Assembly: GCA_973851085.1 (NCBI GenBank)
Contig: OZ316775.1
Span: 8,494,001 to 8,558,000 of the forward strand
DNA from: Ptychomitrium polyphyllum
Taxonomy: Eukaryota
Reading direction: 5' to 3'
Length of the DNA stretch: 64,000 nt
Numbering within the stretch: position 1 is the first letter of the stretch; the number at the start of each line of letters is the position of its first letter. Shown one piece after another: positions 10,063 to 44,648 of the stretch. A program made the position numbers and the translations under genes. The notes beneath the pieces are model-generated. The model was not told the DNA's origin. It saw only the letters and a program-made list of their open reading frames with translations, and did no database searches.

Positions 10063-10687
10063 GTAAGGCACAGTCTCTGGCCTTCTGAAGGCGATCTTTA
10101 CTGCTCAACGTCTCGTCGATCTCTCTACCCTTGCGTGAAATCGCTTTGAATGTGAGCTTTACTCGAGAGTTCGGGAATCTGGATATTGAACGTTGAGGCT
10201 TTCCTGTTCTTGGGACATCTTTCTTCTGCTAATAGTTTCCGGTGTATGAAAGGTTTAGGGTAAGTAGCGAGCTTATCCGTTTAGGGTCCGGAATGCCTCG
10301 TACAGGAGTGAGAGGGTTGATGGTGCTTAAGAGTCGCAGGTCGTCAAATAATATCGTGAGACGGTTTAAAGCTTACGTACTGGTGCGTCATTGCTCCTTG
10401 CCGCCCGAAACTGCAGGCCGGACAGTTCACTACTGTCTAAATATTTTTCCGTCATTACTATTTCCTTCTCCGCGTCTCTTCCTCTACCACTACGGACTCA
10501 ATCGTGGAGGACAGTAATATCATGAGGGTAAGCAATCTATTGGGTTCACGCCCGAAGAACCACTTCCGTTGGGTAGTCACTGTCTAAAAACAAATCGACT
10601 GCTTCTTTTTCATGGTTTTGGCTTATTCAATCGTAGGCAAACCAGTGTTAAGATCCTTTGCTGCGTTCCGTTCACTCCAGTTCATGA

Positions 10688-13600
10688 AACGCCGAATTGC
10701 AGTCCACAGAACGACCTTTCGCTATACAAGGCTTCAGTGCTATCCGATAGCGAGGTCAAGCCATGGTGGCAGAGCACATGTACCGAGACTGGGTTTCTGC
10801 TGGCCCCTGTTTCGAGAGCTGGAGGCCTGTGCACGATGGCCAGGGTTTGGTACGTCTAGAGCGATTTTGAGCACACGACCCGTCGATCTTGGGGAGTCGG
10901 CTCTGAGCAGCGGGGGTGGATGGTGTGAGACAGTTTTGGAGAGCGTCGTGTCGGCGGGTAGTGCAGGACGTGGTCAACTAGCCGGCTGAGGTGGACGATT
11001 GGCAATGTTTGCCCTCTCGCAGCCGTGGTGTGTCGGACGCATTCCGAGGCCAGAGGGCTCGTTGCGCATCGTGGGCCAGCGAGATGTGTTGAAATCTGGC
11101 GTCGGTGCATCCGGTTTGGGAGGTGGATGAAGCAGGAGGGCCTCATCGTAGGTAGTGCGGAGAGATCGGAGCCAGAGCCCTGTGCTGGGTGAAGAGCGTA
11201 GGGGTTCGAATCTCGGAGTCTGTCCGGTTTCAGCGCCCGTGCGTGCTGATCGCATCGCCGCAGACCGGCACGTTGCCGAGAGTTGTGTGAGGCATCCGGG
11301 CGCTGTGGTGAGTGTGCCAGCGCTGCGTGAGATGGATGGTGTATCCCGCACACGAAGTGAGCCGCATCTCCTCGTGCGTGTGTCGGGGAGGTTTGGACTG
11401 CGGGATGTCGAGATGCGTGGAGGGTTGAGGGCGATGTGTAGCCGGTGTTAACCGGAGCCATCGTCCGGCGAGCAGTGGGAGTTTGTGCGACGGTGGCTAT
11501 GTCGGGTTTGCGCTTGTGTGGTGGACGAGATTCGGTGCTGGGCTGATTCGTGAGCTGGTTGTTTCCTCCTGTGTCCGTTGGTTGTGAAATCTGGCGCCTG
11601 TGTGGAGGGGCACGGCCGCGGGAAACTGAGTGGGGGGCGTTTTGGGGTGTGCAGAGCGAATTGACTGGGCCGGAGTTGACCTTTGAAGGCGAGCACCATG
11701 TCGGAGCAGAGTGATGTGACGCAGAACGTCCCGGACCCCGTGATGGAGAACGTGAGCAGGATGCCCGCTTCTCAGACGGGTCCGATTTCGCAGTACGGAC
11801 CCGGCAACCGGTTCTTGACCAAGGACAGGACAGTGCACCAGATTCTAGGCGGAGGTCGAGGTAAGGCCCACGCATCTCTGGAGGAGCTGACAGTGCAGGC
11901 GCGGAGTGCGGAATCTGCCGGGTTCAGGCAGGGTCCGGTGTCCGGGTGGTCGGCGAACTGATCCGTTGGTGTTGGGTGTGGATGCAGCTGCCGATTCGGC
12001 TCTCTGGAGGGACAAGTATCTGTCGGCTGGGACTCTGGGCGGGTCGACGCTGGTGTGGTTTCTGTTGGAGAAGTCCGGGTACACGTTCATGACGCTGCTG
12101 TGCAACATTCTGATGTTCGCGGTGGTGATTCTGTTCGTGTGGTCGAACGTGGCCGCCCTGCTGCACAGGTTTGTGTCCGAGACCTGAATGTGACGGGTTC
12201 GTGGGAGATGGGCAATGAGATGGATGGTGGGAACGGGTGACGCCGCGTAAGGGACTCGGGTCTGTGCGGGTTCGTGACGCCGTAGGAGTCGGGTTTGGTT
12301 GTGAACGGAGACGTGTCTGCCAGCGGTGGCGAGGAGTTGGTGGGGACTGATGGGGTTACGGTGGGATTGTGGGTGTCAGAGCTGGCCCACCAGTACCGGA
12401 GCTGTCGCTGTCGGAGGATTTCGTTCTGAGCACAGCAAGCATGGTGCGCAACGACGTGAACAGGGCCCTGGCGATCGCGCGGGACGTCGCTCTGGGCAAG
12501 GATTTCAAGCTGTTTTTGCTGGTGAGCTGCGGTCATGCGAGCTGGGTAGGGGTCGACGGCAGGACGGTCGGGATGATTGTTGTAGGAGCGGAGGTCGAGG
12601 TTGTGTCGGAGCCCGTGGGCCGTTGCTGTGGGCGGTCGGGGAGTTGTGAGGAGCTGAACGGGGATGTGTGGCATGGGGCGCAGGTGATCGCGTTCCTGTA
12701 CGTTGTGTCGACGGTGACGGCGTGGTTCAACTTCCTGACGTGCGTGTGGATCGGTAAGCGGGCTGTGCCTTGGAGGAAGGACATGATGTGGTTGTGGGAT
12801 GGGCGGAGTGAGCCGACGGTGGCAGTGGGCACGGTTGATCGTGCGAGTCGCTGACATGATGGGCGTGTGGCAGGTATCGTGTTGCTGCACATCGTTCCGT
12901 TCATCTACGACAAGTACGAGGACGTGATCGACCACCACGCGAGGAGGGCGGCAGACGTAGCCAGCACCCACTACAAGAACGTGGACGCTGCGGTGTTGAG
13001 CAAGATCCCGAGGGCCCCGGCCAAGAAGAAGCTGTAGGTGCGCGAAGGTGGTGTCGGGCGATTGGGCGGGGGCCGCAGCGGGCGGGACGCAGCGCGAGAG
13101 GGGCGAGGGATATGTATATACGTACATACGTGGTGCACAGTAGGATTGGGGCGTATACCTTTGTGTTTTTGGATGTATGTAGCTCTGGAGTCGGCACTGT
13201 GCAGTATCGTAGGAGTAAGACGGATGGTCTGTAACGTGTACAGAATCCAGGTCTGTGGTTACGGAGGTTCCTTCATAAGTGGTGTCCGCGACGGGCATTT
13301 TTTAAAATCTAATTGGATCTTTCCCTTGATGTCGTGAGAGCGAGGGCGTGAGTGGGTGTCCGATGCGGGTGTCGTGGGTGCGGGCTTGCGGCGGTGCGTA
13401 GGAAGTGAGAACCGAGGCGCGGATCCTGAGGCCGTGGATGACGGGATCGCATCGCGCAGCGTACCGTCGCTGTGATGCGAGACGGTGAGTGTGAAGCAAG
13501 AGGTAGGTGTGGGTGGAAGATCCCGTCATCAACAGCCGAGGGTTCGGATGCTGTCGCTGTCGTTCCGGTGCGGCGGCATGTGCGGAAGCAACGGAACGCC

Positions 13601-14060
13601 GCAGCTCGTAGATGTGGCCGGACAAGCCCGGTCGGGGTGGAGAGAACGCAGAGCCGGTCTGGGTCCGTGGACGTGAGAGGGCACGTGGGAGAAACCGAGC
13701 GAGCGTGTGTGAGAGTGGGAAAGGGACTCGTCCGTCGAGGCAGTGCGCACCGGAGGCTGTGGAGCGAGCTGGTGGGCTTGGGAATGCTCGCTTGCCACCG
13801 GAATGTGGTTTTCACTGAACCTTGCACCCGGAAGCATTGGCACGGGAGTGGCGGTTCTCGACCGCAGTGGGTTTGCGTGGGAATGTTTTATGCGGTTTAT
13901 GCTGGACAGTATGGGGATCTATCGAGCTGAGTCTGAACGAGATGGTTGACGACGTGCACGGCGCCGTTGCGAAGTAGATGTGTATTGCGAAATGTGAATG
14001 CGTTGGAGTCCTTTTTGTGTAAAGCTAGCGTGACATCGTGGAGGATGTTTAGGCTTTTTT
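10688..14060 (+). repeat. Direct repeat copy 1 (3.37 kb, near-identical to 40523-43895)
   Basis: ORF tracks match at a constant offset of 29835; the only difference noticed is T13888 vs C43723. Imperfect match continues to ~10647. Confidence 0.95.
11698..13037 (+). CDS. RTNLB: Reticulon-like protein (RTNLB family), 239 aa, 5 coding exons: 11698-11860, 11988-12168, 12380-12521, 12684-12753, 12874-13037
   Basis: All introns GT..AG and phases consistent (720 nt). Protein has VHQILGGGRAADSALWRDKYLSAGTLGG...LFVWSN...DVALGKDFKLFL...WFNFLT...VPFIYDKYEDVID and ends AKKKL*, a KKXX ER-retrieval signal. 5'UTR acceptor at 11654. Confidence 0.95.
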
Positions 14061-16900: not shown

Positions 16901-16923
16901 AAAGCTACAATGATTAGCCTATT

Positions 16924-17204
16924 CATTAAAGACACAAGAAATAAGAAGGAAATACATAGCACTTTTTGAGAATTAGCTTCCAAAGAACTAATGATTAACA
17001 ATAACTCATACAAAGACTGCAGCATGGCAGAATACAATATGATCCACAACTTGTGTTAGGAAGACTAAGGAATACCTTGTCTTGCCTCTTATTTATACTA
17101 TGACACTTATATCTTTTAAGATACTTCTAAAGAAGATTTTTACAAAGCTTAAGAATGTTCATTAAGTTTATGGAACTATTTAAAGAAAATTTTCAAGGAA
17201 TTAG
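16924..17204 (-). mobile_element. Partial LTR, probably the 3' LTR of element D (pairs with 34286-34701); interrupted by element A
   Basis: Shares variants (gaactaatg, gcatggca, aatatgatcc, cttatatctttta, ttttacaaagc) with 34286-34701 that the younger LTRs lack. Confidence 0.7.
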
Positions 17205-19989
17205 TGTTAGGGATACAAGAAACAAGAAGCAGAAACGAAGTGTTTCCGAAGAATTAGCTTCGAAAGAGCTAATGATTAACAAGAACTTGACACAATGACT
17301 GAAACAAGGCAGGATTCAAGATGATTCACAACTAAGACTAAGAAATACCTTGTCTTTCCTCCTATTTAAACTATGACATTTGTATCTCGTAGGATACTTC
17401 TAAAGAAGCTTCCTACAAGGCTTAAGAATGTTCTAGAAGTCTAGAGAACCTTCCCAAGAAGTTTCCTAAGATGTTGAAATTTTCCTTGGAAGTTTCCTAA
17501 GATGGACGAACCTTCCTTGGAAGTTTCCTAAGGTGATAGAATCTTTGTAGGAAGTTTCTTAAAAAGTTACCTAAGATGATAGAACCTTCTTAGGAAGTTT
17601 TCTGAGGTGGAAGAACTTTTCTAGAAAGCTTTCTAAGAACACTCCTAAGAAGTTTTTTAAGAACATAGAAAGGCTATGGAGACATTTAAATATATTTTAA
17701 GAAACTATTATATATATATATTAGAAGGTTCTAAAGTGTTTTAAAAACTATGTTGCATGATTTATGCCCGTAACATCACCTCCCCATTTAGCGACGAGTT
17801 CCATGACTTGTCACATTTCTTTTCTTTGCTTGCTTGTCACATTTCTACAAATTTCAAAACTCGTCGAAGGAGTGAAGCAACATATTCAACTTGTTGTGGA
17901 TATTCCATTTCATTATTGATTTCCAGCAATGAGGTGGAGGGACAATTCTTTCTGGTATACATGATTTGTTATAGGTTTCCAACAACGATACGTAGAATAT
18001 TGGATGAATATACATGCTTGGTGGTAGTTTTATGCGATAACTAATCGGATTTATTTGATTGCTGATTTTAAACGGTCCCAACCTTTGATAGTCCAACTTC
18101 TTTGATGGTCTTTTTTGTTTGTATATTTTGTCGTAGAAGCTACACGCTATCTCCAACCTTGAACTTTGGATGGTCCTTTTGATAGTGATTTGTATAAGTT
18201 TTGTAATGATTTTGAGCTTGTTGTAACCTGGAAGGCAATTTCTTAATGGATTTTAGCAAGTTGAATTGCAAAATCTTCTATTGCAGGATTTCCAACATAC
18301 TCCATTTGAAATGAATCTGCTCGAAGATAATGCCCATAGTTTGGAAAGAATGGACTCTGAGTTGTTGAAGAATGTACCGTATTGTTGTAAGCAAACTTTG
18401 CTAATGGCAAGAGATCCATCCAGTTGTCTTGCTGGTAGTTTATACTACAATGAAGGTATTGTTCCAAAATTTAATTCACACGTTCGGTTTGACCATTAGT
18501 TTGCGGATGGTGTGCTGAAGAAAAGTTGATCTTTACTTGCAACAGCTCGAATAGAATCTTCTAAAAGTTGGAAATGAACTACGGCCCTTGATCAAATACA
18601 AAATCATTTAATAGTCCATGTATGCGGTAGCCGTGATTTAGGAACAACTTGGCAATTTCTTCTCCCATTACCGTCTCGCTGCATGGAATGAAATGTGCCA
18701 TTTTGGTAAATTGATCTACCACTATCAAAATAAAATCCTTAGAATCAGAGTTTAGAAGGTCCGTAATAAAATCCATTGATAAAGACAACCATGCGCCCTT
18801 TGGCACTAGAAGCAAATGGAGGAGACCATGAAGTTGGTATCTTGGTACCTTGGCTCTTGCACAAGTGTTGCATGATCAAACAAAGTCCTTCACGTTCTTC
18901 GACATTTGTAGCCACTAATAGTCTCTAGCAATCAATTCCACTATTTTATTGAATCCAAAATATTCTACTGCTGGAAAATCATGAAGTGCTTGAAGGATCT
19001 TCAACCGCAAAGGGCCTGGACGTAGATACAAAAGTCCTTTATAATAAAATGGGCCCTCTTGGAATTCAAAATCCTCATCGCCATTTGAAAGATCTCCATT
19101 ATCTTTGAGGCGCTTCTTTATATTTGAAACAAAGATATTATTCTTTAATGCCTTCCAAATTTCATCAAATGGAATGTTGTCGTACTAATGGCTGCTTTCA
19201 ATTGAAGATTCTCTAACTTCAATAAAATAATCCTTTGTTGATCCAAAACATCAACTCCAGGCTGAGGGACTAAAGAAGATCTTTTGAGATAAGGCATCTG
19301 GCTTACCTTGTAGGCTACTAGGTTGATAGGTAATGACAAAGCCAAATTTGAAAAGCGATATACTCCATCTTCCTTGACGGCGATTCAAAACACGCGCACT
19401 CATGAAATACTCCAAGTTCTTGTGGTCTGTGTGTATCGTGATGGTATGTTGAGCTCCTTCCAACAAGTGTTGGCATTCTTCAAACGCATCCACAATTGCA
19501 AGTAATTCTTTATTATGGATATCATAGTTGATCACTGCCGCTGAGAATTTTCTTAAACGAAAGGCAAGAGGGTGAAATCTCCTGTCTTCATCATATTGTA
19601 AACGTACTGAGCCAAGTGCAAAATCTAAGGCATTTACTTCCAAATAAAAAGGCTTAAATGGATTTAAATGAATAAGGATTAGAGCCGATGTGAATGACGT
19701 CTTAAGACTTTAAAATGCTTTTTTCGCCTTTACATTCCAAATGAATCTTTATTTCTCCATAAAACGTGTTAATGGTGCCGCAATCTTGAAATAATCCTTG
19801 ATAAATATCCTGTAGAAGTTTGCAAATCCCAAGAAGCATTGAACATCTTGGATTGATCTTGGAGTATTCTACTAAATGACAGTGCTTATTTTCTTCTTAT
19901 CTATATGGATTCCTCCTTTGGAAATGATGTAGCCTAAAAATTCAACCAAGGATTCATGGAAAAGGCACTTCTTCAATTTGGCATACAAT
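17205..19989 (-). mobile_element. Chromovirus element A: 3' LTR (17205-17775), integrase, RNase H and partial RT; truncated
   Basis: TG..CA LTR with adjacent PPT; ORF fragments 18243-18815 (integrase) and 19251-19643 (RNase H); cut in RT at 19989 by the LTR of element B. Confidence 0.9.
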
Positions 19990-22900
19990 TGTTAGGGACA
20001 CAAGAAACAAGAAGCAAAAATGAAGTGATTTCCAAGAATTAGCTTCCATAGAGCTAATGATTAACAAGAACTTGATACAAAGACTAGAACAAGGTAGGAT
20101 TCAAGATGATTCACAACTTGTGTTGGCAAGACTAAGGAATACCTTGTCTTGCCTCCTATTTATACTATGACGTTTGAATCTCCTAGGATACTTCTAAAGA
20201 AGCTTCCTACAAGGCTTAAGAATGTTCTGGAAGTCTGGGGAACCTTCTAAAGAGTCTTCCAAGGAGTTGGAACCTTCCTAAGAGTCTTCCAAGGAATTGG
20301 AACCTTCCTTGGAAGTTTCCTAAAGTAGCGGAACCTTCCTTGGAAGTTTCCTGAAGAGGTAGAACCTTCCTAGGAAGTTTCCTAAGGTGATGGAAGCTTC
20401 CTAGGAAGTAATCTAAGATGATAGAACCTTCCTAGGAAGTTTCTTAAGGTGGAGGAACTTTCCTGGGAAGCTTCCTAAAAACATAAAAAAGGCTATGGAG
20501 ACATCTAAAAGTATTCTAAGAAACTATTCTAGTATATTAGAAGGTTCTCAAATGTTCTAAGGATTATGTTGCATGATCTATGTCCGTGACATCACCTCCC
20601 CTTTTAGCGACGAGTCCCATGAGGAGCTCTTTTCTTGGCTTGCTTGTCACATTTCTACAAATTCCAAAATTTGTCAAAGGAGTGAAGCAACATATTCTGC
20701 TTGTTGTTCTCTGTTCACTGGCTCAACTGGTCCTTGCAAGAAGCGTCGATGGCCACCAGCCAAGACTTCTGTTGTTGAAATGTTCCATTCCAAGATCTGA
20801 TCTTGATTAAGTCCTTCAAAACATCCTCCAAACAAGATTTCGGGTCCTCCAGGGGTGACTCTTCCAATTTCCAATAAGATGACTAGAGCGCGAGCATCTG
20901 AATCAAGACTGGAATGTGAAGGGCGACTAGTCAATACTTCTGCACGAGGTCGTACTCGACGTTGGGATGTCCCTCTCATATCTTGACTTAGATCCTCCGT
21001 TACCGAGGGCTAAGAAAGTTGAGTTGGCTCAACAGATGCTGTTGTTGATGAAGGCATGGCCGACTGCTCTTTACGCATATCCATGATAACACAAAGATTT
21101 GACATACTGGCTAGGATCTAGAAATGATCTATCTTGGAAATAATGCTGCATACAATTGGAGGTCTGGATATCTCTCCTCCCTTCTTATACTTGTCTACAA
21201 AGGAAAAACTTCTCTGTGAAGCTAACGGCTGCTGATGACACATCATCACTGATCTGGTTTCTGAGGATATTTTTGATGAAATTTGCTTACCTTCTCGGAT
21301 GCGTTTGTTACATTCGTTGAAGGTTCCCATGTTCGGTCATTGATGCCATATCCTTGCCAATGTATAAGATACTCCACACGTCCGTTCTTGATGCGTGAAT
21401 CTAAGATATCTTCCACTTCATATTCAATTTTATTATTGATTTCCAGCGGAGGAGGCGGAGGGACAATTCTCTCTGGTAAACATGATTTGTAATAGGTTTC
21501 CAACAACAATACGTGGAACACTGGATGAATTTGCATGCTTGGTGGTAGCTTTAGGCGATAACTAACCGGATTTATTTGTTTGTTGATTTCAAACGGTCCA
21601 AGCCTTTGATAGTCCAACTTCTTTGATGGTCTTTTTGTCTGTATATTTTGTTGTAGGAGCCATACGCTATCTCCAACCTTGAACTTTGGATGGTCCTTCC
21701 GATGGCGATCTGCATAAGTTTTGTAACGATCTTGAGCTTGTTGTAATTGGAAGGTAATTTCTTGATGGATTTTAGCAAGTTGAATTGCAAAATCCTCTGC
21801 TGCAGGACTTCCAACATGCTTCACTTGAAATGGATCTGTTCCAGGATGATGGCCATAGTTTGCAAATAATGGACTTTGAGTTGTTCAAGAAGGCACCGTA
21901 TTGTTATAAGCAAATTCTGCCAAAGGCAAGAGATCCATCCAGTTGTCTTGCTGGTAGTTTATGCTACAACGAAGGTATTGCTCCAAAATTTGATTCACAC
22001 GTTCGGTTTGGCCATCAATTTGTGGATGGTGTGCTGAAGAAAGATTGATCTTTACACGCAATAGCTGGAATAGAGCCCTCCAAAAGTTAGAAATGAATTG
22101 CGGCCCCCGATTGGATACAATATCATCTGGTAGTCCATAAATGCAGTAGTTGTGATTTAAAAACAACTTGGCAGTTTCTTCTTCCGTTACCGTCTTATTG
22201 CATGGAATGAAATGTGCCATTTTTGTAAATCGATCCACCACTACCAAAATAGAATCCTTAGAATCGGAATTTGGAAGGTCCGTGATAAAATCCATTGATA
22301 AAGACAACCATGGGCCCCTTGGCACTGGAAGCGGATGGAAGAGACCATGAGATTGGTGCCTTGGTACCTTGGCTCTTGCACAAGTGTCGCATGATCGAAT
22401 AAAGTCCTTTACGTACTTCCACATTTGTGGCCACCAATAGTCTCTAGCAATCAATTTCATTGTTTTATTGAATCCAAAATGTCCTGCTGCTAGAAAATCA
22501 TGACGTGCTTGAAGGATCTTCAACCGCAAAGGGTCTGGAGGTAGGTACAAAAGTCCTTTATAATAAAGTAGGCCCTCTTGGAATTCAAAGTCTTCATTGC
22601 TATTTGAAGGATTTCCATTGTCTTGGAGGCGCTTCTTTATATTTGAAACAAAGACGTCATTCTTGAAAGCCTTCCGAATTTCGTCAAAATGGGATGTTGT
22701 CGTAATAATGGCTGCTTTCAATTGAAGATTCTCAGGCTTCAATAAAATAGTCCTTTGTTGATTCAAAACATCATCTCCAGGTTGAGGAGCTAAATAAGAT
22801 CTTCAAGATAAGGCATCTGGCTTATCTTGCAAGCTACCAGATCGATAGGTAATGACAAATTCAAATCTGGAAAGCGACATACTCCACCTTGCTTGACGGC

Positions 22901-23623
22901 GATTCAAAACGCGCGCACTCATGAAATACTCCAAGTTTTTGTGATCTGTGTATATCGTGATGGTATGTTGAGCTCCTTCCAATAAGTGTCGCCATTCTTC
23001 AAACGCATCTACAATTGCAAGTAGTTCTTTATCATGTATATCATAGTTGATCTCTGCCGCTCAGAACTTCCTTGAACGAAAGGCAAGAGGGTGAAGTCTC
23101 CCGTCTTCATCATATTGTGAGAGTACTGAGCCAAGCGCAAAATCTGAGGCATTTGCTTCCAAATAGAAAGGCTTTGATGGATTTGGATGAATAAGAATTG
23201 GAGCCGACGTGAATGACTTCTTAAGACTTTGAAATGCTTTTTCCGCCTCTTCATCCCAAATGAATTTTTGCTTCCCCATAAGACGTGTTAATGGTGCCGC
23301 AATATTGGAATAATTCTTGATGAATATTCTATAGAAGTTTGCAAATCCCAAGAAGCATTGAACATCTCGAATTGATCTTGGCGTACTCCACTCCGTGACA
23401 GTGCTTATTTTTTTCTTATCCATATGGATTCCTCCTTTGGAAATGATGTAGCCTAAAAATTCAACCGATGATTCATGGAAAAGGCACTTCTCCAATTTGG
23501 CATATAATCCTCGCTGGCGTAGTTTTTCTAGGACCATTTGCACATGACATTCGTGGTCTTGTTCATCCTTTGAATATATCAGAATGTTAACTAAGTAGTT
23601 GACTACAAAATCATTAAGATGTT
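19990..23623 (-). mobile_element. Chromovirus element B: 3' LTR (19990-20591), extra ORF, chromodomain, integrase, RNase H, partial RT; left arm of the inverted repeat
   Basis: ORFs 21246-21824, 21885-22766 and 23061-23543 translate identically to their counterparts within 27703-30000; mirror coordinates sum to 51246. Confidence 0.95.
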
Positions 23624-25675
23624 AAAGTAGTAATTATTAGATAAGGATTTGATAAAAGAGATTAAGGGCTGATATAGAGAAATATAGGTGATGTGGAGTT
23701 ATAGGGGGCAGATGTGGCGGATGTGGCAGTTTAATTACCGCCCTCTTCTTCTCTCTTGGCCTCTACCACTAAAATAAAAGGCAGCCTTTCTTTAGGTGAG
23801 ATCTCATAGTATACTTCTTAGTTTGAGTTGATTGTTGTTGGAGGATTTTTCTTTTGTGTAGGCTTTTCAAAAAGCTATCGCACGCTCCATTAGGAGTTAA
23901 TATGTGGTCGTGGCTTTAGTTTGAATAATTAAAGTTAGCTACCTTGACTTTTTAAGGGTAACTATTTAAATGTTTGTAACTTCTTGTAGAAACATCTTTT
24001 GTAAGTGAAATTTTGAAAGAAAGGTTTAGATTACTTTGAAAAAGTAGTATCAAAATTTGATAAGCATTGAACTTTTTGAGTAAAAAATATAAAGAAAAAT
24101 GCAACCAGGACCTAGAGGGCAATGTACAGTAGAGTTTGGAGTTGCACAATTTGGGTCATTGTATATGATTAAGGAGATTTCTGAAGTTGATCTTTTGACA
24201 GGGTGTTTATTATAAGATATACATTATATACACAAAGTTTAAAGTTTGAGTTTGCAATGAAAGAAGAGTTATTTAGTGGTAAAGTGATAGGGGTATAGAA
24301 GCTGTAGCCATGAAGAATGTAAATTGTGAAGTTATGGATCCTAGAGGGTACTAAGGATTAAGCAATCAAAATTTATATATAGCTTATTGAATGTTTCAAT
24401 AAGATTTTGTTAAGATATTTTGATGCTTTTGATTAATTTATTAGAAGTTATGACATATTTAGCATTTGGGATTTTCAAGGCAGCGTAGAAGGAAAATTTG
24501 GAATAGCGTATTTGCTTCATTGGATGTTAGAAATTTAAACTTTTTATGCATCTTGACCTTGATCAATTAGATGCTAAAAAAGACCCTATGTTTCTTATAC
24601 CTACCACTCTCACCATAACATTGTTTAAAGGCAATTCTCAACATGCACACTCATAAAGTGTCAAGTACATGAATCATGCAACATAGTCCTTAGAACATTT
24701 GAGAACCTTCTAATATACTAGAATAGTTTCTTAGAATACTTTTAGATGTCTCCATAGTCTTTTTTATGTTTTTAGGAAGCTTTCCAGGAAAGTTCCTCCA
24801 CCTTAAGAAACTTCCTAGGAAGGTTCTATCATCTAAGATTACTTCCTAGGAAGCTTCCATCACCTTAGCAAACTTCCTCGGAAGGTTCTACCTCTTCAGG
24901 AAACTTCCTAAGAAGGTTCCGCTACCTTGGGAAACTTCCAAGGAAGGTTCCAATTCCTTGAAAGCTTCCAAAGAAGGTTCCAACATCTTAGGAAACTTCT
25001 TAGGAAGGTTCCCTATATTTCCAGAACATTCTTAAGCCTTGTAGGAAGCTTCTTTAAAAGTATCATAGGAGATACAAACGTCCTAGTATAAATAGGAGGC
25101 AAGATAAGGTATTCCTTACTCTTGCCAACACAAGTTGTGGATCATCTTGAATCCTACCTTGTTCTAGTCTTTGTATCAACTTCTTGTTAATCATTAGCTC
25201 TTTGGAAGCTAATTCTTGGAAAACACTTCGTTTTTGCTTCTTGTTTCTTGTGTCCTTAACAGTTTGGCAAGACTACTCTTCATCTTTGTCAGAGCTAAGG
25301 TTTTTTGAAGAAGATTGTGGATTACCCATCTTCTTTAGGATTCCATAGCGTCTTAGAGGTTGCGGATTACCCTCCTTCAAGCTGGCACCATAGAGTTGGT
25401 TTCTCCTTCTAGAATCAAGTATTACTTCTTTCAAAGGACGTGGATTTCCTCCTTTGAAGGTACTCATACTCTTTCTGTCTTTGAGAGTCTTAAGAAATGA
25501 ATAATGTGCTTGGAACATCAGAGAATAGATTTGCAACTATTGCAGACCTTCAAGAATTATTAAACACAGTTTGAACGGAACTCGCCTGTTTTAATACCAC
25601 CAACAATTTGGAGCAACACACTCGGCAAGCTGAAGAATCCAATGGTGATATTCAAAATTTATATCAAGAAGTAGT

Positions 25676-26515
25676 TTGATTACAGAGGCCAATATTAAAA
25701 GAGAAGGCTTACGTCAAACCCATGCAGAGCCAAAGATTTGCAAACCAGACAAGTTCAATAAATCAAGATCAAAATTGAGAGGCGTTGTTCAACAATTAAG
25801 ACTCTTCCTTAGTTTGCATCAATTTCGCTATCCTAAAGACACAACTCAAGTGAGATTTGTCATCACTATTTTATTAGACAATGTCTCATCGTGGTTTGCA
25901 CCATTAATGGAGAAGTTGTCACTATTATTCAACAAATTGGATACTTTTATAGAAGCATTGACATCTACTTTTGGAGTCACCAACCAAGAGAGGGTGGCTG
26001 AGACAAGGATCCAAAACCTACAACAAGAACAACACTCAGCAACTACATATGCTGCAGAGTTTTGACAATTAGCTTGCAACCTTGATTAGAATGATAAAGC
26101 CTTGGTCACAAGATTTCGATGGGGCTTAAGAGAGAATGTCAAGGACTTGCTACTCACAATGCCAAGAGTTGAAACATTGGACGAATTCATCACTCAAGCA
26201 ATAGCATGTAACAACAGATTATTTGAGAGGCGCCAAGAACAACGCTTGGGATGGCGACCAGTACATCAAAGCATGGGTACCACTTCTTCAAGAGTATCCG
26301 AAAGTCGACCGCAAGGACCAGAACCTATGCAAATTGATGCTGCCCAGTTCAGACGCTTGACTCCAGAAGAAAAAAAAAGGCGTCGAAGAGAAAACCTCTG
26401 CTTGTATTGTGGCAAGTCTGGACATAAAGTGCGCGACTGCCAAATCAAAGGATCTGCTTTTAAGGCTCAAAGCACAATGGTGGAGTTGGAAAACGAGGCT
26501 GTCCAGTCACAGTAG
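25676..26515 (+). pseudogene. gag: gag of element C (interrupted by stops)
   Basis: Retrotransposon gag-like core (KPDKF...SWFAPL...YAAEF), PEPMQID motif and zinc knuckle CLYCGKSGHKVRDC; premature stops near 26063 and 26087. Confidence 0.9.
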
Positions 26516-29500: not shown

Positions 29501-30000
29501 TACAACAAGCTCAAGATCGTTACAAAACTTATGCAGATCGCCATCGGAAGGACCATCCAAAGTTCAAGGTTGGAGATAGCGTATGGCTCCTACAACAAAA
29601 TATACAGACAAAAAGACCATCAAAGAAGTTGGACTATCAAAGGCTTGGACCGTTTGAAATCAACAAACAAATAAATCCGGTTAGTTATCGCCTAAAGCTA
29701 CCACCAAGCATGCAAATTCATCCAGTGTTCCACGTATTGTTGTTGGAAACCTATTACAAATCATGTTTACCAGAGAGAATTGTCCCTCCGCCTCCTCCGC
29801 TGGAAATCAATAATAAAATTGAATATGAAGTGGAAGATATCTTAGATTCACGCATCAAGAACGGACGTGTGGAGTATCTTATACATTGGCAAGGATATGG
29901 CATCAATGACCGAACATGGGAACCTTCAACGAATGTAACAAACGCATCCGAGAAGGTAAGCAAATTTCATCAAAAATATCCTCAGAAACCAGATCAGTGA
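26488..30000 (+). pseudogene. pol: pol of element C: protease, RT, RNase H, integrase, chromodomain (inactivated)
   Basis: LLDTGA protease; MPFGLTNA RT with YLDD mutated to YLVN; integrase H..H..CDTC zinc finger and LGPF; chromodomain [22 protein letters not shown]; about 9 in-frame stops counted by eye. Confidence 0.93.
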
Positions 30001-31256
30001 TGATGTGTCATCAGCAGCCGTTAGCTTCACAGAGAAGTTTTTCCTTTGTAGACAAGTATAAGAAGGGAGGAGAGATATCCAGACCTCCAATTGTATGCAG
30101 CATTATTTCCAAGATAGATCATTTCTAGATCCTAGCCAGTATGTCAAATCTTTGTGTTATCATGGATATGCGTAAAGAGCAGTCGGCCATGCCTTCATCA
30201 ACAACAGCATCTGTTGAGCCAACTCAACTTTCTTAGCCCTCGGTAACGGAGGATCTAAGTCAAGATATGAGAGGGACATCCCAACGTCGAGTACGACCTC
30301 GTGCAGAAGTATTGACTAGTCGCCCTTCACATTCCAGTCTTGATTCAGATGCTCGCGCTCTAGTCATCTTATTGGAAATTGGAAGAGTCACCCCTGGAGG
30401 ACCCGAAATCTTGTTTGGAGGATGTTTTGAAGGACTTAATCAAGATCAGATCTTGGAATGGAACATTTCAACAACAGAAGTCTTGGCTGGTGGCCATCGA
30501 CGCTTCTTGCAAGGACCAGTTGAGCCAGTGAACAGAGAACAACAAGCAGAATATGTTGCTTCACTCCTTTGACAAATTTTGGAATTTGTAGAAATGTGAC
30601 AAGCAAGCCAAGAAAAGAGCTCCTCATGGGACTCGTCGCTAAAAGGGGAGGTGATGTCACGGACATAGATCATGCAACATAATCCTTAGAACATTTGAGA
30701 ACCTTCTAATATACTAGAATAGTTTCTTAGAATACTTTTAGATGTCTCCATAGCCTTTTTTATGTTTTTAGGAAGCTTCCCAGGAAAGTTCCTCCACCTT
30801 AAGAAACTTCCTAGGAAGGTTCTATCATCTTAGATTACTTCCTAGGAAGCTTCCATCACCTTAGGAAACTTCCTAGGAAGGTTCTACCTCTTCAGGAAAC
30901 TTCCAAGGAAGGTTCCGCTACTTTAGGAAACTTCCAAGGAAGGTTCCAATTCCTTGGAAGACTCTTAGGAAGGTTCCAACTCCTTGGAAGACTCTTTAGA
31001 AGGTTCCCCAGACTTCCAGAACATTCTTAAGCCTTGTAGGAAGCTTCTTTAGAAGTATCCTAGGAGATTCAAACGTCATAGTATAAATAGGAGGCAAGAC
31101 AAGGTATTCCTTAGGCTTGCCAACACAAGTTGTGGATCATCTTGAATCCTACCTTGTTCTAGTCTTTGTATCAACTTCTTGTTAATCATTAGCTCTATGG
31201 AAGCTAATTCTTGGGAAACACTTCGTTTCTGCTTCTTGTTTCTTGTGTCACTAACA

Positions 31257-34200
31257 TAAAGTACTCCAAGTTCTTGTGGTTTGCTTATATTAAGATGGTA
31301 TGTTAAGCTCCTTTCAACATGTGCTACCATTCTTCAAATGCATCTACAATTGCAAGTAATTCTTTATCATATATATCATAATTGATTTCAGCCGCTCAGA
31401 GCTTCTTTGAACAAAAGGCAATAAGGTGGAATCTCTCGTCTTCATCATATTTTGAAAGTACTAAGCCAAGAGAAGGCTTTGATGGATTTAGATGAATAAG
31501 GATTGAAGCCGACATGAATAACTTCTTAAGACCTTGAAATGCTTTTTTTACCTCTTCATTCCAAGTGAATTTTTGCTTCTATGTAAGTCAAATTAGTAGT
31601 GCCGCAATCTTGTGATAATCCTTGATGAATATCTTGTAGAAGTTTGCAAATTCCAAAAAGCATTGAACATCTCAAATTGATCTCAATGTATTTTACTTTA
31701 TGATAGCGTTTATTTTTATTTCATCCATATGGAATTCTCCTTTAGAGATGATGTAGCCTAAAATATCAATCAAGGATTCATGGAAAATGCACTTATCCAA
31801 ATTGGCATGTAATCCTCGCTAGCGTAGCTTTTTTAAGATCAACCGCAGATGACATTTGTGATCTTAATCATCCTTTGAATACATCAAAATGTCATCCAAG
31901 TAGATGATTACAAAATAATCCAAATATTCATAGAAGATATCATTCATTATGTGTTGGAAGACTGCAGGGGCATTAATAAGGCCAAAAATCATGATATTGT
32001 ATTCAAAATGGCCATACCTAGATTGCAAGGTTGTCTTCCATTTGTCTTTTTTTTTTAATACATACAAAGTTGTAGGCTCTTCTAAGGTCAATCTTATTGA
32101 ATATCTTTGTTTGGCTAAGTTGTTGTAAGAGTTTTGAAATGAAAAATAATGGACATCGATTCTTCTTAATCACTTTATTGAGGCCCCAATAGTTCACGTA
32201 CATATATAATGATCCATCTTTCTATTTTACATTTAAAACGGGTATTCTAGTAGATGATTTGGAGTGTTGGCTAATGGCATTTTCAAGGTTTTCATTGATA
32301 TATTTTCTCAAGGCAGTCAACTTGTTTTGTGTTATGTTATCAATAGATTCAAAAGGTGGTTGGGCTCCATCTTGCAACTCAATGGTACAATTTCAAGGTT
32401 GGTGCTTTGGTAATATATCTGCATTCTTCTTTTCTAATACATCTTTATAGTCTTGGTATTGATGAGGTATGTCTTGATTAATTTTTGGTATAAAGTTAGA
32501 CATTGGCATAGCATAAATGGCATAAATTGATTTATCCTTTGCCGCTCTTATTAATGTCTTAGATCCAATAAATAATGGTCCAATATTTCTCGTAACTTCA
32601 CGTCTTTTCCTTGAGACCACACTATGTGAGCCCCAATCAATGTCTAAATTATGTAATTCAAATCAAGAAAGGCCTAAGACAATAAGGTTTGTTCGGCATT
32701 AAATGATGTTGAAGACAACCTTAGATGCTTGGTCTCCTAAAACAACCTCCAAGAGTTGGGTTTATATAATAACATTGTCAAATGCAAGAAATCGTCCATT
32801 GATAACTTCAATAAGTGTAAGATATTTTTTGTTCACAAACACTACATGGTATTTGGTTGCAAAATCCTTATTTGTGAAGCATGCGGTTGGACAAGTGTCT
32901 TAAAGAGCCTCACCAATTATTTCATCGCCTAACAATTGGATTTTGATAGGAAATGTAAAGCAAGAAGATGAAGTTGGAAGTAGTAAGAGACCTTGATTTG
33001 ATGGTCGTTTCCTTGTGGTGTCCAGTTGCATAATCTCTAATGTGATTGGACAGTCTTGTTTTCCAACTCTACCATTGTGCTTTGAGCCTTGAAGGCAAAT
33101 CCTTTAAATTAGCAATTGTGCACTTTTTCTCCAGACTTGCCCCAATACAAACATAAGTTTCCTCATTGACACCTTTTTTTTTCTTTTGGAATTAAATGAC
33201 TAAATTGGGCAGCATCAATTTGCATAGGTTATGGTCTTTATAATTGGCTTTCTAATACTTTTGAAGAAGTGTTTGTTATACTCTAATGTATCGGACGCTA
33301 TCCCAAGCGTTGTCATTAGCACATCTCAAATAATCTATTGTCACATGCTATTGCTTGAGTGATGAAGTCGTCTCCTATTTCAACCTTTGGTATTATAAGT
33401 AGCAAATTCTTCAGATTCTTTCTCAAGCCCCATTAAGATTATATGACCAAGGCCTTCTTATTCTAATCAAGGTCATAAGCTAGTTATTAAAATTCTACAG
33501 CATATATAGCAGCCAAGCATTGTCTTTGTTGTAGGCTTTGGATTCTTGTTTTAGCCACTTTCTCTCAGTTAGTGTCTCCAAAAGTAGATGTCAACTCTTC
33601 CATGAAAGCATCTAAATTATTCAATAATGGTGACTTCTTCTTTATTAATGGTGCAAAGCACGATAGTGCATTGTTTGATAGAAGAGTGGCTACAAATTTT
33701 ACTTGAGTAGTGCCATCAGGATAGCAAGATCAACGCAAACTGAAGAAGAGCCTTAGTTGTTGAAAAAAAATTCAACTTTGACTTCAATCCATCAAATTTG
33801 TTTGGAATACAAATCTTTGAATCTATATGGTTTTAACGTAAGTCTTTCCTTCCAATATTGACCTTGTAATCAAATATCTATTTGATATAGATTTTAAATA
33901 TGGCCATTGAATTCTTTAGTTTGTCAAATGTGCTGTTTTAAATTGATAGTCGTGTTGAAGCGTGCAGGTTTTGTTTGAAAGATCAATATTAGTTGCAAAA
34001 TGCTTTTCTGATGTTTCTTATATATTATCCATACTTATGATTGTCAAATACAATAAGACTATAAATACCTTTAAAGAAGAGAAATTTGCGTGTATTGAAA
34101 GATTGATCCTCCTTCAAAAAAAAAATACTTACTTTTAGAAGAAGAAGCCATTTTTTGGTATCAACTTAAAGAAGGGTAATCTACAACCTCCAAAATGCTA

Positions 34201-34701
34201 TGAGATTATTAAAAAGATGGATAACCCGTTATTTTTTTTCAAAAAACCTAAGCTTTAATAACGATAAAGAGTACTCTTGTCAAATAATTAAGATCACAAG
34301 AAACAAGAAGTAGATCCAATGTATTTACCAAGAATTAGCTTCCAAAGAACTAATGATTAACGAGAATTCATACAAAGATTAGAGCATGGCAAAATATAAT
34401 ATGATCCACAACTTGTGTTGGCAAAACTAAGGTATACCTTGTCTTACCTCCTATTTATACTATGACGCTTATATCTTTTAAAATACTTCTAAAGAAGCTT
34501 TTTACAAAGCTTAAGAATGTTCTTTAAGTCTATAGAACTGTTTCAAGAATTTTTCTAAGGAATTGGAACTTTCTTAGGAAATTTCTTAAAGTAGTGGAAA
34601 CAGCTATTGAAGCATTGAAAGTATTCTAAAAAACTACTACAATATATTAGAAGGTTTTAAAAGCTTCTAAAGAATGTTCTTTATGATCCATATCCGTGAT
34701 A
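31257..34701 (-). mobile_element. Older chromovirus element D: RNase H, RT, protease, gag and 5' LTR (~34286-34701); target of element C
   Basis: RT fragment with IYLDDILMYS (31864-32091); protease and gag remnants. Removing C rejoins CACACTCA-TAAAG-TACTCCAAG, the RNase H segment also seen at ~19390-19420. Confidence 0.9.
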
Positions 34702-34845
34702 ATCTCTTAATTGTATTTTATATTTCTTATTTTAATACAATATAATTCTCAATTGCTTTTATTTTTGTACATCGTTTTTTTACCACATCGTTTGTATTAC
34801 AAGCAATGAAATACATTCTTTTATAGTTCAGGACTCTTCCAATGT

Positions 34846-38900: not shown

Positions 38901-39419
38901 ACATTTGACATCATTTATGGAGATGAAGATTAATGCAAGGTTTTACATAGCAATAGAAAGCTCCAAAACAAATCAAGATTAGGCTTAAAAAGCAAGCAGT
39001 AAAACAAGCAAAATGAATGAGTAGACAAAGTCAACCATCCAATATGAAAAAATGAACATATTGTGCATACAAAGTATGTGAACCTCATGGTTTCATGTAA
39101 AAGACATTTAAACATGAAGATGCATTGTACATAGTTTATTGATACTGTTGTAGTTAACATATTCCAAGAAAGAACTGGAGTATGAGAAAACTTTTTCAAG
39201 TTTGCATATTACAAATTTGCAACAAGAACAAGTTTTCAGAAAAAGTTTCTTGACATTTTTCCAAGAATTCCCAACGTTATCCAGAAATTTGCCATTTCAT
39301 TTTAGCTAGCATGTGATTAACTCTGCCAGTTCTATGGTTCTAGCCGTTCAGTGGGGCGGAGGCCACGCAGGGACGAAAAGGAGGGGAGAGGAGGCCAGTA
39401 GGCGACGAAAGGAACATTA

Positions 39420-39490
39420 GGTGGGGCGGGGCAGGGAGGGGAGGGAGCGCTGGGCTGGGCTGGGCTGGGCTGGGCTGGGCTTGGGGGGCC
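39420..39490 (+). promoter_or_regulatory. G-rich promoter block with (TGGGC)x6
   Basis: GGGGCGGGGCAGGGAGGGGAGGG followed by six TGGGC units at 39451-39480, just upstream of a pyrimidine-rich leader. Confidence 0.6.
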
Positions 39491-39529
39491 GCACAAAGGA
39501 CGGTGCGATCCGCAGGCGGGGATCTACGT

Positions 39530-39669
39530 GTTACTCCCTTCTGCCTTCTGCCACTGTTTTCGACACTCTCTTTGCGCTTGTCTTCTCTCTCTCGTCTTTG
39601 TTGTCTCTCGTCTTGTGGCCGCTGCGACCTCAAAGCGTCCGTGCGCTTCCCAGCTCTGATTCCCCTCAG
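39530..39669 (+). promoter_or_regulatory. Probable non-coding first exon upstream of reticulon copy 2
   Basis: CT-rich leader ending cccctcag|GTAACT at 39669/39670, followed by a T-rich intron. Confidence 0.55.
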
Positions 39670-40522
39670 GTAACTTACCCTCAGCCTCAGCCGCTCCTCC
39701 TACTCCCGCTTCTAGCACCACTTTGCTGCGGCCATGCTTTTCTCCGTCTCGTAGCCCGTGTATGCCCCTTCTGTAACAATGGGAGTTTCAGGATCATGTT
39801 AGCGCAGGTTGTCCCTTCACTGCTGCATTTCTGTGTACTGGGTTGAGGTTTTCTCTTTTTGCCTTTTCTTTTCGCTTTTGCGCTCTTTTGAAGGTCATGG
39901 TAGGCAGCGAGCTTGCTCATAGTCTTGGAGGATTAGGAGGTGCTTTGGAGTGTGATATTAGCGACTGGTGTTAGATTTGGGCTTAAGAGGAGTGTATGAA
40001 GGGTAAGGTTCCGTTTATTCTTGCGTCTTGCTGGCCGGGAGTGGACGACTCGCGGTTTACGACTGTTAGATGGTAATTTTGGTGCTTTGGTTGTTGTATT
40101 TTTATCTCTTTCTTCCTCTGTTTATTTTCGTGTGGCTTTTAAAGTGATTGAAGACGGATATCTTTGATCTGAGGGCGACGTATCTTTGGCATCCATGCGA
40201 TTTGTGCTAGTCCTAAAGAATACACGACCTTCTTCATTTCTTGATAGCAGTAGCCTTAATTGTAGGAAACTCACTTTTAGAATTTTTTTGTCATATTAAA
40301 GTCATTTCGTCGTGGTCTTCTAACCGGCAAACTCTTCAAACCTGGGAGTCGCAGTTCAGAGAAACTTGTCTTCAAGGCAGCACTTTAGACGTGTTTCAAC
40401 CAAAAATGATGTTCCTGCGGTTGACAGTACATATAACGATGGAAAGAAACTACATTATATGACCTAGTCATTTTGTCCGTCGTCAAGATCCTTTGCTGCG
40501 TTCCATTCTCTCCAGTACATGG

Positions 40523-43500
40523 AACGCCGAATTGCAGTCCACAGAACGACCTTTCGCTATACAAGGCTTCAGTGCTATCCGATAGCGAGGTCAAGCCATG
40601 GTGGCAGAGCACATGTACCGAGACTGGGTTTCTGCTGGCCCCTGTTTCGAGAGCTGGAGGCCTGTGCACGATGGCCAGGGTTTGGTACGTCTAGAGCGAT
40701 TTTGAGCACACGACCCGTCGATCTTGGGGAGTCGGCTCTGAGCAGCGGGGGTGGATGGTGTGAGACAGTTTTGGAGAGCGTCGTGTCGGCGGGTAGTGCA
40801 GGACGTGGTCAACTAGCCGGCTGAGGTGGACGATTGGCAATGTTTGCCCTCTCGCAGCCGTGGTGTGTCGGACGCATTCCGAGGCCAGAGGGCTCGTTGC
40901 GCATCGTGGGCCAGCGAGATGTGTTGAAATCTGGCGTCGGTGCATCCGGTTTGGGAGGTGGATGAAGCAGGAGGGCCTCATCGTAGGTAGTGCGGAGAGA
41001 TCGGAGCCAGAGCCCTGTGCTGGGTGAAGAGCGTAGGGGTTCGAATCTCGGAGTCTGTCCGGTTTCAGCGCCCGTGCGTGCTGATCGCATCGCCGCAGAC
41101 CGGCACGTTGCCGAGAGTTGTGTGAGGCATCCGGGCGCTGTGGTGAGTGTGCCAGCGCTGCGTGAGATGGATGGTGTATCCCGCACACGAAGTGAGCCGC
41201 ATCTCCTCGTGCGTGTGTCGGGGAGGTTTGGACTGCGGGATGTCGAGATGCGTGGAGGGTTGAGGGCGATGTGTAGCCGGTGTTAACCGGAGCCATCGTC
41301 CGGCGAGCAGTGGGAGTTTGTGCGACGGTGGCTATGTCGGGTTTGCGCTTGTGTGGTGGACGAGATTCGGTGCTGGGCTGATTCGTGAGCTGGTTGTTTC
41401 CTCCTGTGTCCGTTGGTTGTGAAATCTGGCGCCTGTGTGGAGGGGCACGGCCGCGGGAAACTGAGTGGGGGGCGTTTTGGGGTGTGCAGAGCGAATTGAC
41501 TGGGCCGGAGTTGACCTTTGAAGGCGAGCACCATGTCGGAGCAGAGTGATGTGACGCAGAACGTCCCGGACCCCGTGATGGAGAACGTGAGCAGGATGCC
41601 CGCTTCTCAGACGGGTCCGATTTCGCAGTACGGACCCGGCAACCGGTTCTTGACCAAGGACAGGACAGTGCACCAGATTCTAGGCGGAGGTCGAGGTAAG
41701 GCCCACGCATCTCTGGAGGAGCTGACAGTGCAGGCGCGGAGTGCGGAATCTGCCGGGTTCAGGCAGGGTCCGGTGTCCGGGTGGTCGGCGAACTGATCCG
41801 TTGGTGTTGGGTGTGGATGCAGCTGCCGATTCGGCTCTCTGGAGGGACAAGTATCTGTCGGCTGGGACTCTGGGCGGGTCGACGCTGGTGTGGTTTCTGT
41901 TGGAGAAGTCCGGGTACACGTTCATGACGCTGCTGTGCAACATTCTGATGTTCGCGGTGGTGATTCTGTTCGTGTGGTCGAACGTGGCCGCCCTGCTGCA
42001 CAGGTTTGTGTCCGAGACCTGAATGTGACGGGTTCGTGGGAGATGGGCAATGAGATGGATGGTGGGAACGGGTGACGCCGCGTAAGGGACTCGGGTCTGT
42101 GCGGGTTCGTGACGCCGTAGGAGTCGGGTTTGGTTGTGAACGGAGACGTGTCTGCCAGCGGTGGCGAGGAGTTGGTGGGGACTGATGGGGTTACGGTGGG
42201 ATTGTGGGTGTCAGAGCTGGCCCACCAGTACCGGAGCTGTCGCTGTCGGAGGATTTCGTTCTGAGCACAGCAAGCATGGTGCGCAACGACGTGAACAGGG
42301 CCCTGGCGATCGCGCGGGACGTCGCTCTGGGCAAGGATTTCAAGCTGTTTTTGCTGGTGAGCTGCGGTCATGCGAGCTGGGTAGGGGTCGACGGCAGGAC
42401 GGTCGGGATGATTGTTGTAGGAGCGGAGGTCGAGGTTGTGTCGGAGCCCGTGGGCCGTTGCTGTGGGCGGTCGGGGAGTTGTGAGGAGCTGAACGGGGAT
42501 GTGTGGCATGGGGCGCAGGTGATCGCGTTCCTGTACGTTGTGTCGACGGTGACGGCGTGGTTCAACTTCCTGACGTGCGTGTGGATCGGTAAGCGGGCTG
42601 TGCCTTGGAGGAAGGACATGATGTGGTTGTGGGATGGGCGGAGTGAGCCGACGGTGGCAGTGGGCACGGTTGATCGTGCGAGTCGCTGACATGATGGGCG
42701 TGTGGCAGGTATCGTGTTGCTGCACATCGTTCCGTTCATCTACGACAAGTACGAGGACGTGATCGACCACCACGCGAGGAGGGCGGCAGACGTAGCCAGC
42801 ACCCACTACAAGAACGTGGACGCTGCGGTGTTGAGCAAGATCCCGAGGGCCCCGGCCAAGAAGAAGCTGTAGGTGCGCGAAGGTGGTGTCGGGCGATTGG
42901 GCGGGGGCCGCAGCGGGCGGGACGCAGCGCGAGAGGGGCGAGGGATATGTATATACGTACATACGTGGTGCACAGTAGGATTGGGGCGTATACCTTTGTG
43001 TTTTTGGATGTATGTAGCTCTGGAGTCGGCACTGTGCAGTATCGTAGGAGTAAGACGGATGGTCTGTAACGTGTACAGAATCCAGGTCTGTGGTTACGGA
43101 GGTTCCTTCATAAGTGGTGTCCGCGACGGGCATTTTTTAAAATCTAATTGGATCTTTCCCTTGATGTCGTGAGAGCGAGGGCGTGAGTGGGTGTCCGATG
43201 CGGGTGTCGTGGGTGCGGGCTTGCGGCGGTGCGTAGGAAGTGAGAACCGAGGCGCGGATCCTGAGGCCGTGGATGACGGGATCGCATCGCGCAGCGTACC
43301 GTCGCTGTGATGCGAGACGGTGAGTGTGAAGCAAGAGGTAGGTGTGGGTGGAAGATCCCGTCATCAACAGCCGAGGGTTCGGATGCTGTCGCTGTCGTTC
43401 CGGTGCGGCGGCATGTGCGGAAGCAACGGAACGCCGCAGCTCGTAGATGTGGCCGGACAAGCCCGGTCGGGGTGGAGAGAACGCAGAGCCGGTCTGGGTC

Positions 43501-43895
43501 CGTGGACGTGAGAGGGCACGTGGGAGAAACCGAGCGAGCGTGTGTGAGAGTGGGAAAGGGACTCGTCCGTCGAGGCAGTGCGCACCGGAGGCTGTGGAGC
43601 GAGCTGGTGGGCTTGGGAATGCTCGCTTGCCACCGGAATGTGGTTTTCACTGAACCTTGCACCCGGAAGCATTGGCACGGGAGTGGCGGTTCTCGACCGC
43701 AGTGGGTTTGCGTGGGAATGTTCTATGCGGTTTATGCTGGACAGTATGGGGATCTATCGAGCTGAGTCTGAACGAGATGGTTGACGACGTGCACGGCGCC
43801 GTTGCGAAGTAGATGTGTATTGCGAAATGTGAATGCGTTGGAGTCCTTTTTGTGTAAAGCTAGCGTGACATCGTGGAGGATGTTTAGGCTTTTTT
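40523..43895 (+). repeat. Direct repeat copy 2 (near-identical to 10688-14060)
   Basis: Constant offset of 29835; identity ends after AGGCTTTTTT. Confidence 0.95.
41533..42872 (+). CDS. RTNLB: Reticulon-like protein (RTNLB family), second copy, 239 aa; exons 41533-41695, 41823-42003, 42215-42356, 42519-42588, 42709-42872
   Basis: Same splice sites and protein as 11698-13037. Confidence 0.95.
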
Positions 43896-44548: not shown

Positions 44549-44648
44549 TATCAAATTGTACAGTGAAATCTTAGATTTTATGAATGATGATTGCAATATA
44601 TCAAATTGTACAGTGGAATCTTAGATTTTATGAATGATGATTGCAATA
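44549..44648. repeat. Tandem duplication, 2 x 50 bp
   Basis: TATCAAATTGTACAGTG(A/G)AATCTTAGATTTTATGAATGATGATTGCAATA twice, one mismatch. Confidence 0.9.

Follow-up and report, generated by a model that had tools for sequence, protein, structure and literature searches.

Twin reticulon genes in a moss genome as probable old tandem duplicates kept identical by gene conversion

The window analysed here, 64,000 nucleotides of Ptychomitrium polyphyllum DNA (assembly GCA_973851085.1, contig OZ316775.1, positions 8,494,001 to 8,558,000), contains two reticulon (RTNLB) genes arranged head to tail and 30 kb apart. These twin genes are very probably old tandem duplicates that have been kept identical by repeated non-allelic gene conversion. 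Self-alignment of the window reveals a direct repeat with an offset of 29,835, in which 10688-14060 pairs with 40523-43895 with one mismatch and no gaps over 3,373 bp. The sole difference is T/C at 13888, and divergence between the copies amounts to 0.03% (95% upper limit 0.17%). An earlier sequence-only reading had reported this near-identity, preceded by a fringe of about 40 bp with about five mismatches, and both observations hold: five mismatches (10649, 10670, 10674, 10682 and 10687) lie within the 41 bp of 10647-10687, a density distinct from that of the core (Fisher p=1e-9). This fringe is likely a relic of an older conversion tract. The right end is sharp, after 14060/14063, and the tract reaches 1 kb beyond the stop codon. 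The match had also been described as running through introns, untranslated regions (UTRs) and upstream sequence; the introns and UTRs are indeed included, but the supposed upstream part is 5'-UTR intron, and the promoters lie outside the tract. The proposal that the duplication is old and larger than the tract, with a converted core, is supported by the splice junction of a related-moss mRNA (L001), by read depth in a second organism (B) and by a remnant of homology within the 5'-UTR intron.

The encoded protein is an ordinary 239-aa member of the RTNLB family, with matches to the Pfam domain PF02453 (Reticulon) in three exons, two of them over the curated cut-off. Its best named relatives are moss proteins, led by the products of three neighbouring genes of Ceratodon purpureus, M758_1G203800, 204000 and 204200 (P0004, P0005 and P0007 below). 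It differs from P0004 and P0005 at 17 and 19 of the first 236 residues, which corresponds to about 92% identity. The protein itself is unremarkable, and the interest of the locus lies in the history of its DNA. Features of the window are collected in Table 1.

Table 1. Coordinates of the twin reticulon genes, their homogenised tracts and the retroelements between them (position 1 is the first nucleotide of the window)
Feature	Position	Strand	Remarks
Copy 1, predicted first (5'-UTR) exon	9900..10062	+	outside tract; approximate start; GT donor at 10063
Copy 1, predicted 5'-UTR intron	10063..11654	+	tract begins within; acceptor 11654/11655 matches the L001 mRNA junction
Copy 1, fringe	10647..10687	+	5 mismatches in 41 bp against 40482-40522
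Copy 1, homogenised tract	10688..14060	+	rest of 5'-UTR intron, 5 coding exons, 4 introns, ~1 kb 3' sequence
Copy 1, reticulon (RTNLB) coding region	11698..13037	+	239 aa, intact, spliced frame open
Copy 1, coding exons	11698-11860, 11988-12168, 12380-12521, 12684-12753, 12874-13037	+	
Nest of decayed Ty3-type chromodomain long terminal repeat (LTR) retrotransposons	16929..34700		self-BLAST; gag, protease, RT/RNaseH, integrase and chromo Pfam matches
Truncated retroelement copy	19990..23623	-	inverted relative to 27623-31256
Full-length retroelement	24659..31256	+	LTRs 92.9% alike; target-site duplication TAAAG
Copy 2, predicted first (5'-UTR) exon	39507..39669	+	outside tract; approximate start; GT donor at 39670
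Copy 2, predicted 5'-UTR intron	39670..41489	+	unconverted part 39670-40481 aligns weakly to 10063-10646
Copy 2, fringe	40482..40522	+	pairs with 10647-10687; junction present in read contigs
Copy 2, homogenised tract	40523..43895	+	coding region 41533-42872; both flanking junctions are loose ends in X1 and X2

Two copies in the raw reads

Copy 1 was compared with four sequencing runs, X1 to X4, of which X3 represents organism B. Runs X1 and X2 belong to one sample, possibly the source of the assembly, and therefore test the assembly rather than other individuals. In X1, the tract forms a single contig of exactly 3,373 bp with a depth of 71.2, which approximates the sum of its flanks (contig depths of 32.2 upstream of copy 2 and 41.9 downstream of copy 1), i.e. 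about twice the flank depth. In X2, tract contigs reach depths of 698-879 versus 290-350 for the copy-1 flank contigs. The flanks of copy 2 are carried by loose ends at both ends of the tract in both runs, and position 13888 reads T in X1 and C in X2. Both copies exist in the raw data: the read-depth check proposed in the sequence-only reading gives the doubled tract, and read contigs contain the two sets of junctions. Run X4, which shares the species label of the X1/X2 sample and amounts to 6 Mb, returned no records matching copy 1.

An assembly artefact, in which a single gene was entered twice or diverged copies were merged into one sequence, is extremely improbable. Two separate near-perfect repeats of similar length (3.4 and 3.5 kb) inside 35 kb would be in keeping with such an error, as would the finding that no contig among the matches listed spans a whole copy together with both flanks. 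Against this stand the alternative junctions at both ends in contigs of two runs, the additive tract depth and the presence of both letters at 13888. With the junctions of both copies present in raw-data contigs and the tract at roughly double the depth of its flanks, assembly error is unlikely.

Two further contigs, X1 record 3 and X2 record 7, match 11792-13168 and represent a third reticulon paralogue at single depth, with exons about 80% alike, introns that cannot be aligned and fewer G/C than the tract. This third paralogue of the X1/X2 sample has escaped homogenisation.

A second species, base composition and flanking homology

Comparison of X3 with both copies gave 19 and 25 records, and depths and differences were taken from those among the matches listed. 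Five tract contigs of organism B have depths of 19.2, 17.7, 19.5, 21.3 and 17.8 (mean 19.1). Depths outside the tract are 10.2 and 9.4 for contigs upstream of copy 1, 12.1 for one far upstream of copy 2, and 12.7, 11.2 and 11.1 for contigs of the neighbouring gene at 45824-49900, which served as a single-copy depth control. The tract thus stands at 1.72 times the mean of these six flank and neighbour values (11.1; range 9.4-12.7). The third paralogue has a depth of 14.1 in B, and a rank test of the tract against all seven lower non-tract contigs listed, this paralogue included, gives p=0.0013. In four tract contigs, 26 of ~263, 42 of 497, 108 of 1,650 and 42 of 479 bases depart from the window sequence, together 218 of ~2,890 aligned bases or 7.5%.

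The doubled stretch in B runs from about 10627 to an apparent end near 14000. Its contig begins, with copy-1-like letters, about 20 bases to the left of the fringe seen in the window's species (A), and carries copy-2 letters at 10682 and 10687. The copy-1 upstream contig ends near 10654 by depth-bin arithmetic, about 30 bases within the doubled contig, as expected at a graph branch, and B has sequence upstream of both copies (9449-10212 and about 39090-39300). Judged from these contigs, the doubled stretch in B likely represents two collapsed copies that span almost the same interval as in A. The two species differ about 250 times as much as the copies within A do (at least ~45 times at the 95% limit). 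Copies that are alike within a species and different between species are a sign of concerted evolution, and contig depth supports the view that the twin pair predates the split of the two species and was homogenised in both. A comparison across species, as suggested in the sequence-only reading, thus shows the diverged tract at ~1.7-fold depth; the copy-2 junction was not seen in B. If substitutions accumulate at 9e-9 per site per year, the copies in A would have been homogenised for the last time about 16,000 years ago (0.4-92 thousand), and A and B would have split about 4 million years ago. Two non-coding stretches upstream of copy 1, 8598-9002 and 9449-9600, are about 86% kept in B, unexpectedly far from the gene; they are possibly regulatory or a remnant of another gene.

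Base composition changes at the left edge of the tract within one intron. The unconverted parts of the 5'-UTR intron contain 46.6% (copy 1) and 44.2% (copy 2) G + C, 45.2% together, versus 60.7% in the tract (Fisher p=1e-13), a step of about 16 points. At this edge G/(G+A) is 0.71 inside the intron tract versus 0.52-0.54 (p=6e-10), and C/(C+T) is 0.48 versus 0.37-0.42 (p=0.001). The four coding-region introns have a GC content of 61-66% and the introns of the neighbouring gene 40-48%; over the 300 bp past the right end, GC drops to 48% and 40%. At fourfold sites, GC reaches 78% in the window gene versus 40-57% in all six of six related reticulon mRNAs. The differences listed for X1 comprise 32 from G/C to A/T and 6 in the reverse direction, mostly from the third paralogue and unpolarised. 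Taken together, the composition suggests that conversion has likely also enriched the copied DNA in G + C. A GC step at the tract edge is predicted by long-term GC-biased conversion, not by a single recent duplication. Throughout the tract the sense strand is strongly enriched in G relative to C, and in both copies (10688-14460 and 40523-44295) this skew extends several hundred bases beyond the right end.

Such a recent partial duplication, in which 3.4 kb of a reticulon gene was copied once, by one-sided invasion, into old paralogue remains or into the first intron of another gene, is a very improbable explanation. One frayed and one sharp end would fit a single event with a homologous and a non-homologous end, respectively; the downstream flanks show no clear homology, and an inverted retroelement tract within the window, described below, is built alike and may stem from a single event. 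However, this course of events leaves the doubled depth and similar ends in B, 7.5% diverged, unexplained, and the 16-point GC step would need many events.

Outside the tract, homology is detectable upstream only. An alignment of about 300 bp joins the unconverted stretches of the 5'-UTR intron (10063-10646 in copy 1, 39670-40481 in copy 2), and its score is reached by none of 1,200 real control stretches under either scoring, the controls being matched for GC and not for strand skew. Diverged homologous flanks, as claimed in the sequence-only reading, are thus upheld upstream, where the alignment stands out from background, but not downstream, where the signal is weak or not significant. The short motifs on which that claim had been built (10031/39645, 10260/39900, 10244/39994 and 10276/40010) are present, yet occur at chance level: four 14-mers with at most two mismatches are shared between the flanks versus a shuffle mean of 2.85, and 22 of 60 shuffles reach four. 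Moreover, the second and third sets reuse one stretch of about 40 bp in copy 1 against two places in copy 2. Being at chance level and partly double-counted, these motifs are not evidence for flank homology. Aligning the two upstream regions with MAFFT gave no useful information.

Further support comes from L001, a related-moss mRNA from a metagenome collection that matches the window from 11655 onward. Its first exon aligns with copy 1 at 9953-10046 (z 5.3; 0 of 200 shuffles) and, more weakly, with copy 2 around the donor at 39670 (z 3.3; 1 of 200 shuffles), where the exon end resembles the mRNA junction. Of the six mRNA 5'-UTRs compared with the flanks, only that of L001, the closest, aligned; the other five are more distant. 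Since L001 upstream sequence aligns before both copies, it is likely that each of them has retained a separate first exon and promoter, and one identical protein from two different promoters is the predicted outcome. Among 41 metagenome loci, no close genomic orthologue with flanks was found, and self-comparison of the 11 long loci revealed a second copy in none. Long 5'-UTR introns are common in Physcomitrium patens (PMC3729371).

Mechanism, retroelement nest and weight of the evidence

In the proposed mechanism, a break in one copy would be repaired by copying the other without crossover, with the same chromosome or the sister chromatid as template. Copying would extend to the edges of the remaining homology, which would produce one sharp end and one frayed end, the latter from an earlier tract; the promoters, first exons and distal intron would have drifted too far to pair. 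A preference of mismatch repair for G/C during these events is likely and would account for the rise of intron GC from 45% to 61%. Selection for dosage, or for two patterns of expression, may keep the pair. Homologous recombination in mosses has been noted as efficient (PMC3729371; PMC3045890).

Origins of the gene pair by transposon-borne capture or retrocopying were considered and rejected: neither end pair carries a direct repeat, there is no terminal inverted repeat, and every intron is retained in both genes.

The retroelement nest between the genes holds a second identical tract. Between the truncated copy at 19990-23623 and the inverted stretch 27623-31256 of the full-length element there are 8 differences; these fall within the outer 142 bp, whereas the other 3,492 bp are identical in the assembly sequence. 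Within these outer 142 bp, three LTR ends differ from one another about equally (8, 6 and 6). The simplest reading of this pattern would be that the two elements inserted independently and that a recent conversion between them extended as far as the truncated copy reaches. If so, it suggests that apparent element ages can be reset, and a resetting of apparent LTR ages by conversion has been proposed (PMC7251063). As in the gene pair, this tract has a frayed end and a sharp end. The two elements are separated by about 1 kb (23624-24658) that matches nothing else in the window, and the LTRs contain arrays of a 31-bp unit in 3 to 8 copies (17446-17650, 20239-20479, 24772-25012 and 30768-31007).

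Homogenisation of the reticulon genes might instead have proceeded through cycles of unequal crossing-over, from two copies to three and back to two, rather than through non-reciprocal conversion. The copies are direct repeats on one strand, so that such cycles would give the same end product, and sequence alone cannot separate the two routes. Each cycle, however, requires a gain and a loss of 30 kb, depth indicates two copies in both organisms, and unequal crossing-over cannot homogenise the inverted retroelement pair, which is also homogenised (a circumstantial point). This route is therefore regarded as very improbable, and non-allelic conversion is retained as the preferred explanation.

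The Ceratodon proteins hint at partial conversion in that reticulon array too. P0004 and P0005 differ at 15 of 115 residues in the first part and at 3 of the next 121; by comparison, the differences of the window protein from the two are evenly spread (8/9 and 9/10; Fisher p=0.018). Set against the P0004/P0007 pair, the contrast between halves gives p=0.086. In trees of the protein halves, for which 16 of 20 rows were kept (two Sphagnum rows and two of offset length were omitted), P0004 and P0005 cluster in the C-half tree (94/90) and not in the N-half tree, which has no starred branches. P0004 and P0005 share a rare YD motif.

A wider reading is put forward tentatively, with a probability somewhat short of even. 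Whole-gene conversion may be a lineage-wide process with a 30-kb range, tracts of 3.4-3.5 kb, a strong GC bias (about +16 points in a neutral intron) and borders held through speciation, yielding one protein from two diverged promoters and perhaps dating back to the tandem reticulon array that Ceratodon shows as well. If this were true, near-identical tandem pairs of mosses that are taken for recent duplications, and retroelement copies that look young, would often be old.

Several observations weigh against conversion as the explanation or against parts of it. In organism B, the copy-2 junction was not seen: 39574-40347 and the two downstream flanks (43831-45765 and most of 13840-16500) have no X3 cover at 80% likeness, which is not proof of absence. 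The depth ratio of 1.7, obtained from the X3 records among the matches listed, falls below 2; GC may influence depth, as the value of 14.1 for the third paralogue would allow, and so may the ploidy and purity of the X3 sample. The evidence on GC comes from one locus with non-independent sites and unpolarised substitutions, and at the 3' edge C/(C+T) rises significantly but G/(G+A) does not (p=0.15). Outside the intron remnant, the exon-0 pair is weak (its score is reached by 75 and 45 of 799 controls), the promoters are not alignable above controls (472 and 475 of 1,200 reach the score), and the downstream 400 bp are matched by 61 and 6 of 1,200 controls, while the downstream 500 bp give p 0.46-0.59 against shuffles. 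The Ceratodon trees are weakly supported, and as regards synteny, a search with the neighbouring gene returned three proteins (those named being from Physcomitrium and Sphagnum) and no Ceratodon locus tag.

Relation to known systems

Interlocus gene conversion makes paralogues alike within a species while orthologues diverge, and it ceases at substitutions or indels that disrupt pairing (Fawcett and Innan 2011, PMC3924837). In the yeast ribosomal-protein duplicates treated in the same paper, coding regions are converted and regulatory regions have diverged, as in the moss pair. In the moss pair, by contrast, introns and 1 kb of 3' sequence are converted as well, in an unbroken 3.4-kb tract and across an 18-kb retroelement nest. 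In HMA4 of Arabidopsis halleri (10.1101/2025.10.29.685298), conversion has likewise homogenised plant paralogues that lie head to tail; these, too, have a 5'-UTR exon 0, and converted parts alternate with parts that escaped. HMA4 copies differ by 1.2-1.6% in short introns and their long introns escape, whereas the moss copies differ by 0.03% and the border falls inside a long 5'-UTR intron.

For near-identical tandem genes of P. patens, concerted evolution has been suggested (Lang et al. 2008, cited in PMC3045890). These pairs are almost identical including their introns, like the reticulon pair (PMC3045890; PpCESA6/7, PMC13672439), and PpCESA6/7 has been treated as a recent duplication (PMC13672439). 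For the P. patens pairs conversion is a suggestion; the reticulon locus adds depth evidence from across species and mapped tract ends. In humans, non-allelic conversion is reported to be GC-biased, with a mean tract of 250 bp, and converted duplicates gain G + C, as in the reticulon tract (Harpak et al., 10.1101/135152). For P. patens it has been argued that non-allelic conversion is probably not GC-biased (PMC5507605), and on this matter the reticulon locus points the opposite way.

No report of conversion between moss reticulon genes was found in a search of full-text literature outside subscription papers. The process itself is known, and tandem genes of plants provide documented cases; what raises this locus above the routine is the GC step together with the stable borders. 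It is a clean and mapped example of concerted evolution in a plant whose haploid phase dominates, and the evidence comes from two species. Moss tandem genes that are identical are not necessarily young, a point of relevance for the dating of duplications such as PpCESA6/7 (PMC13672439), and the GC step within one intron provides a direct test of the GC bias of moss non-allelic conversion.

The neighbouring gene at 45824-49900, on the minus strand, is a small gene of an uncharacterised plant family, encoding about 75 aa and preceded by a long 5' region. Its coding exons lie near 48325-48412 and 47283-47422, the second being 86% identical to a Physcomitrium protein.

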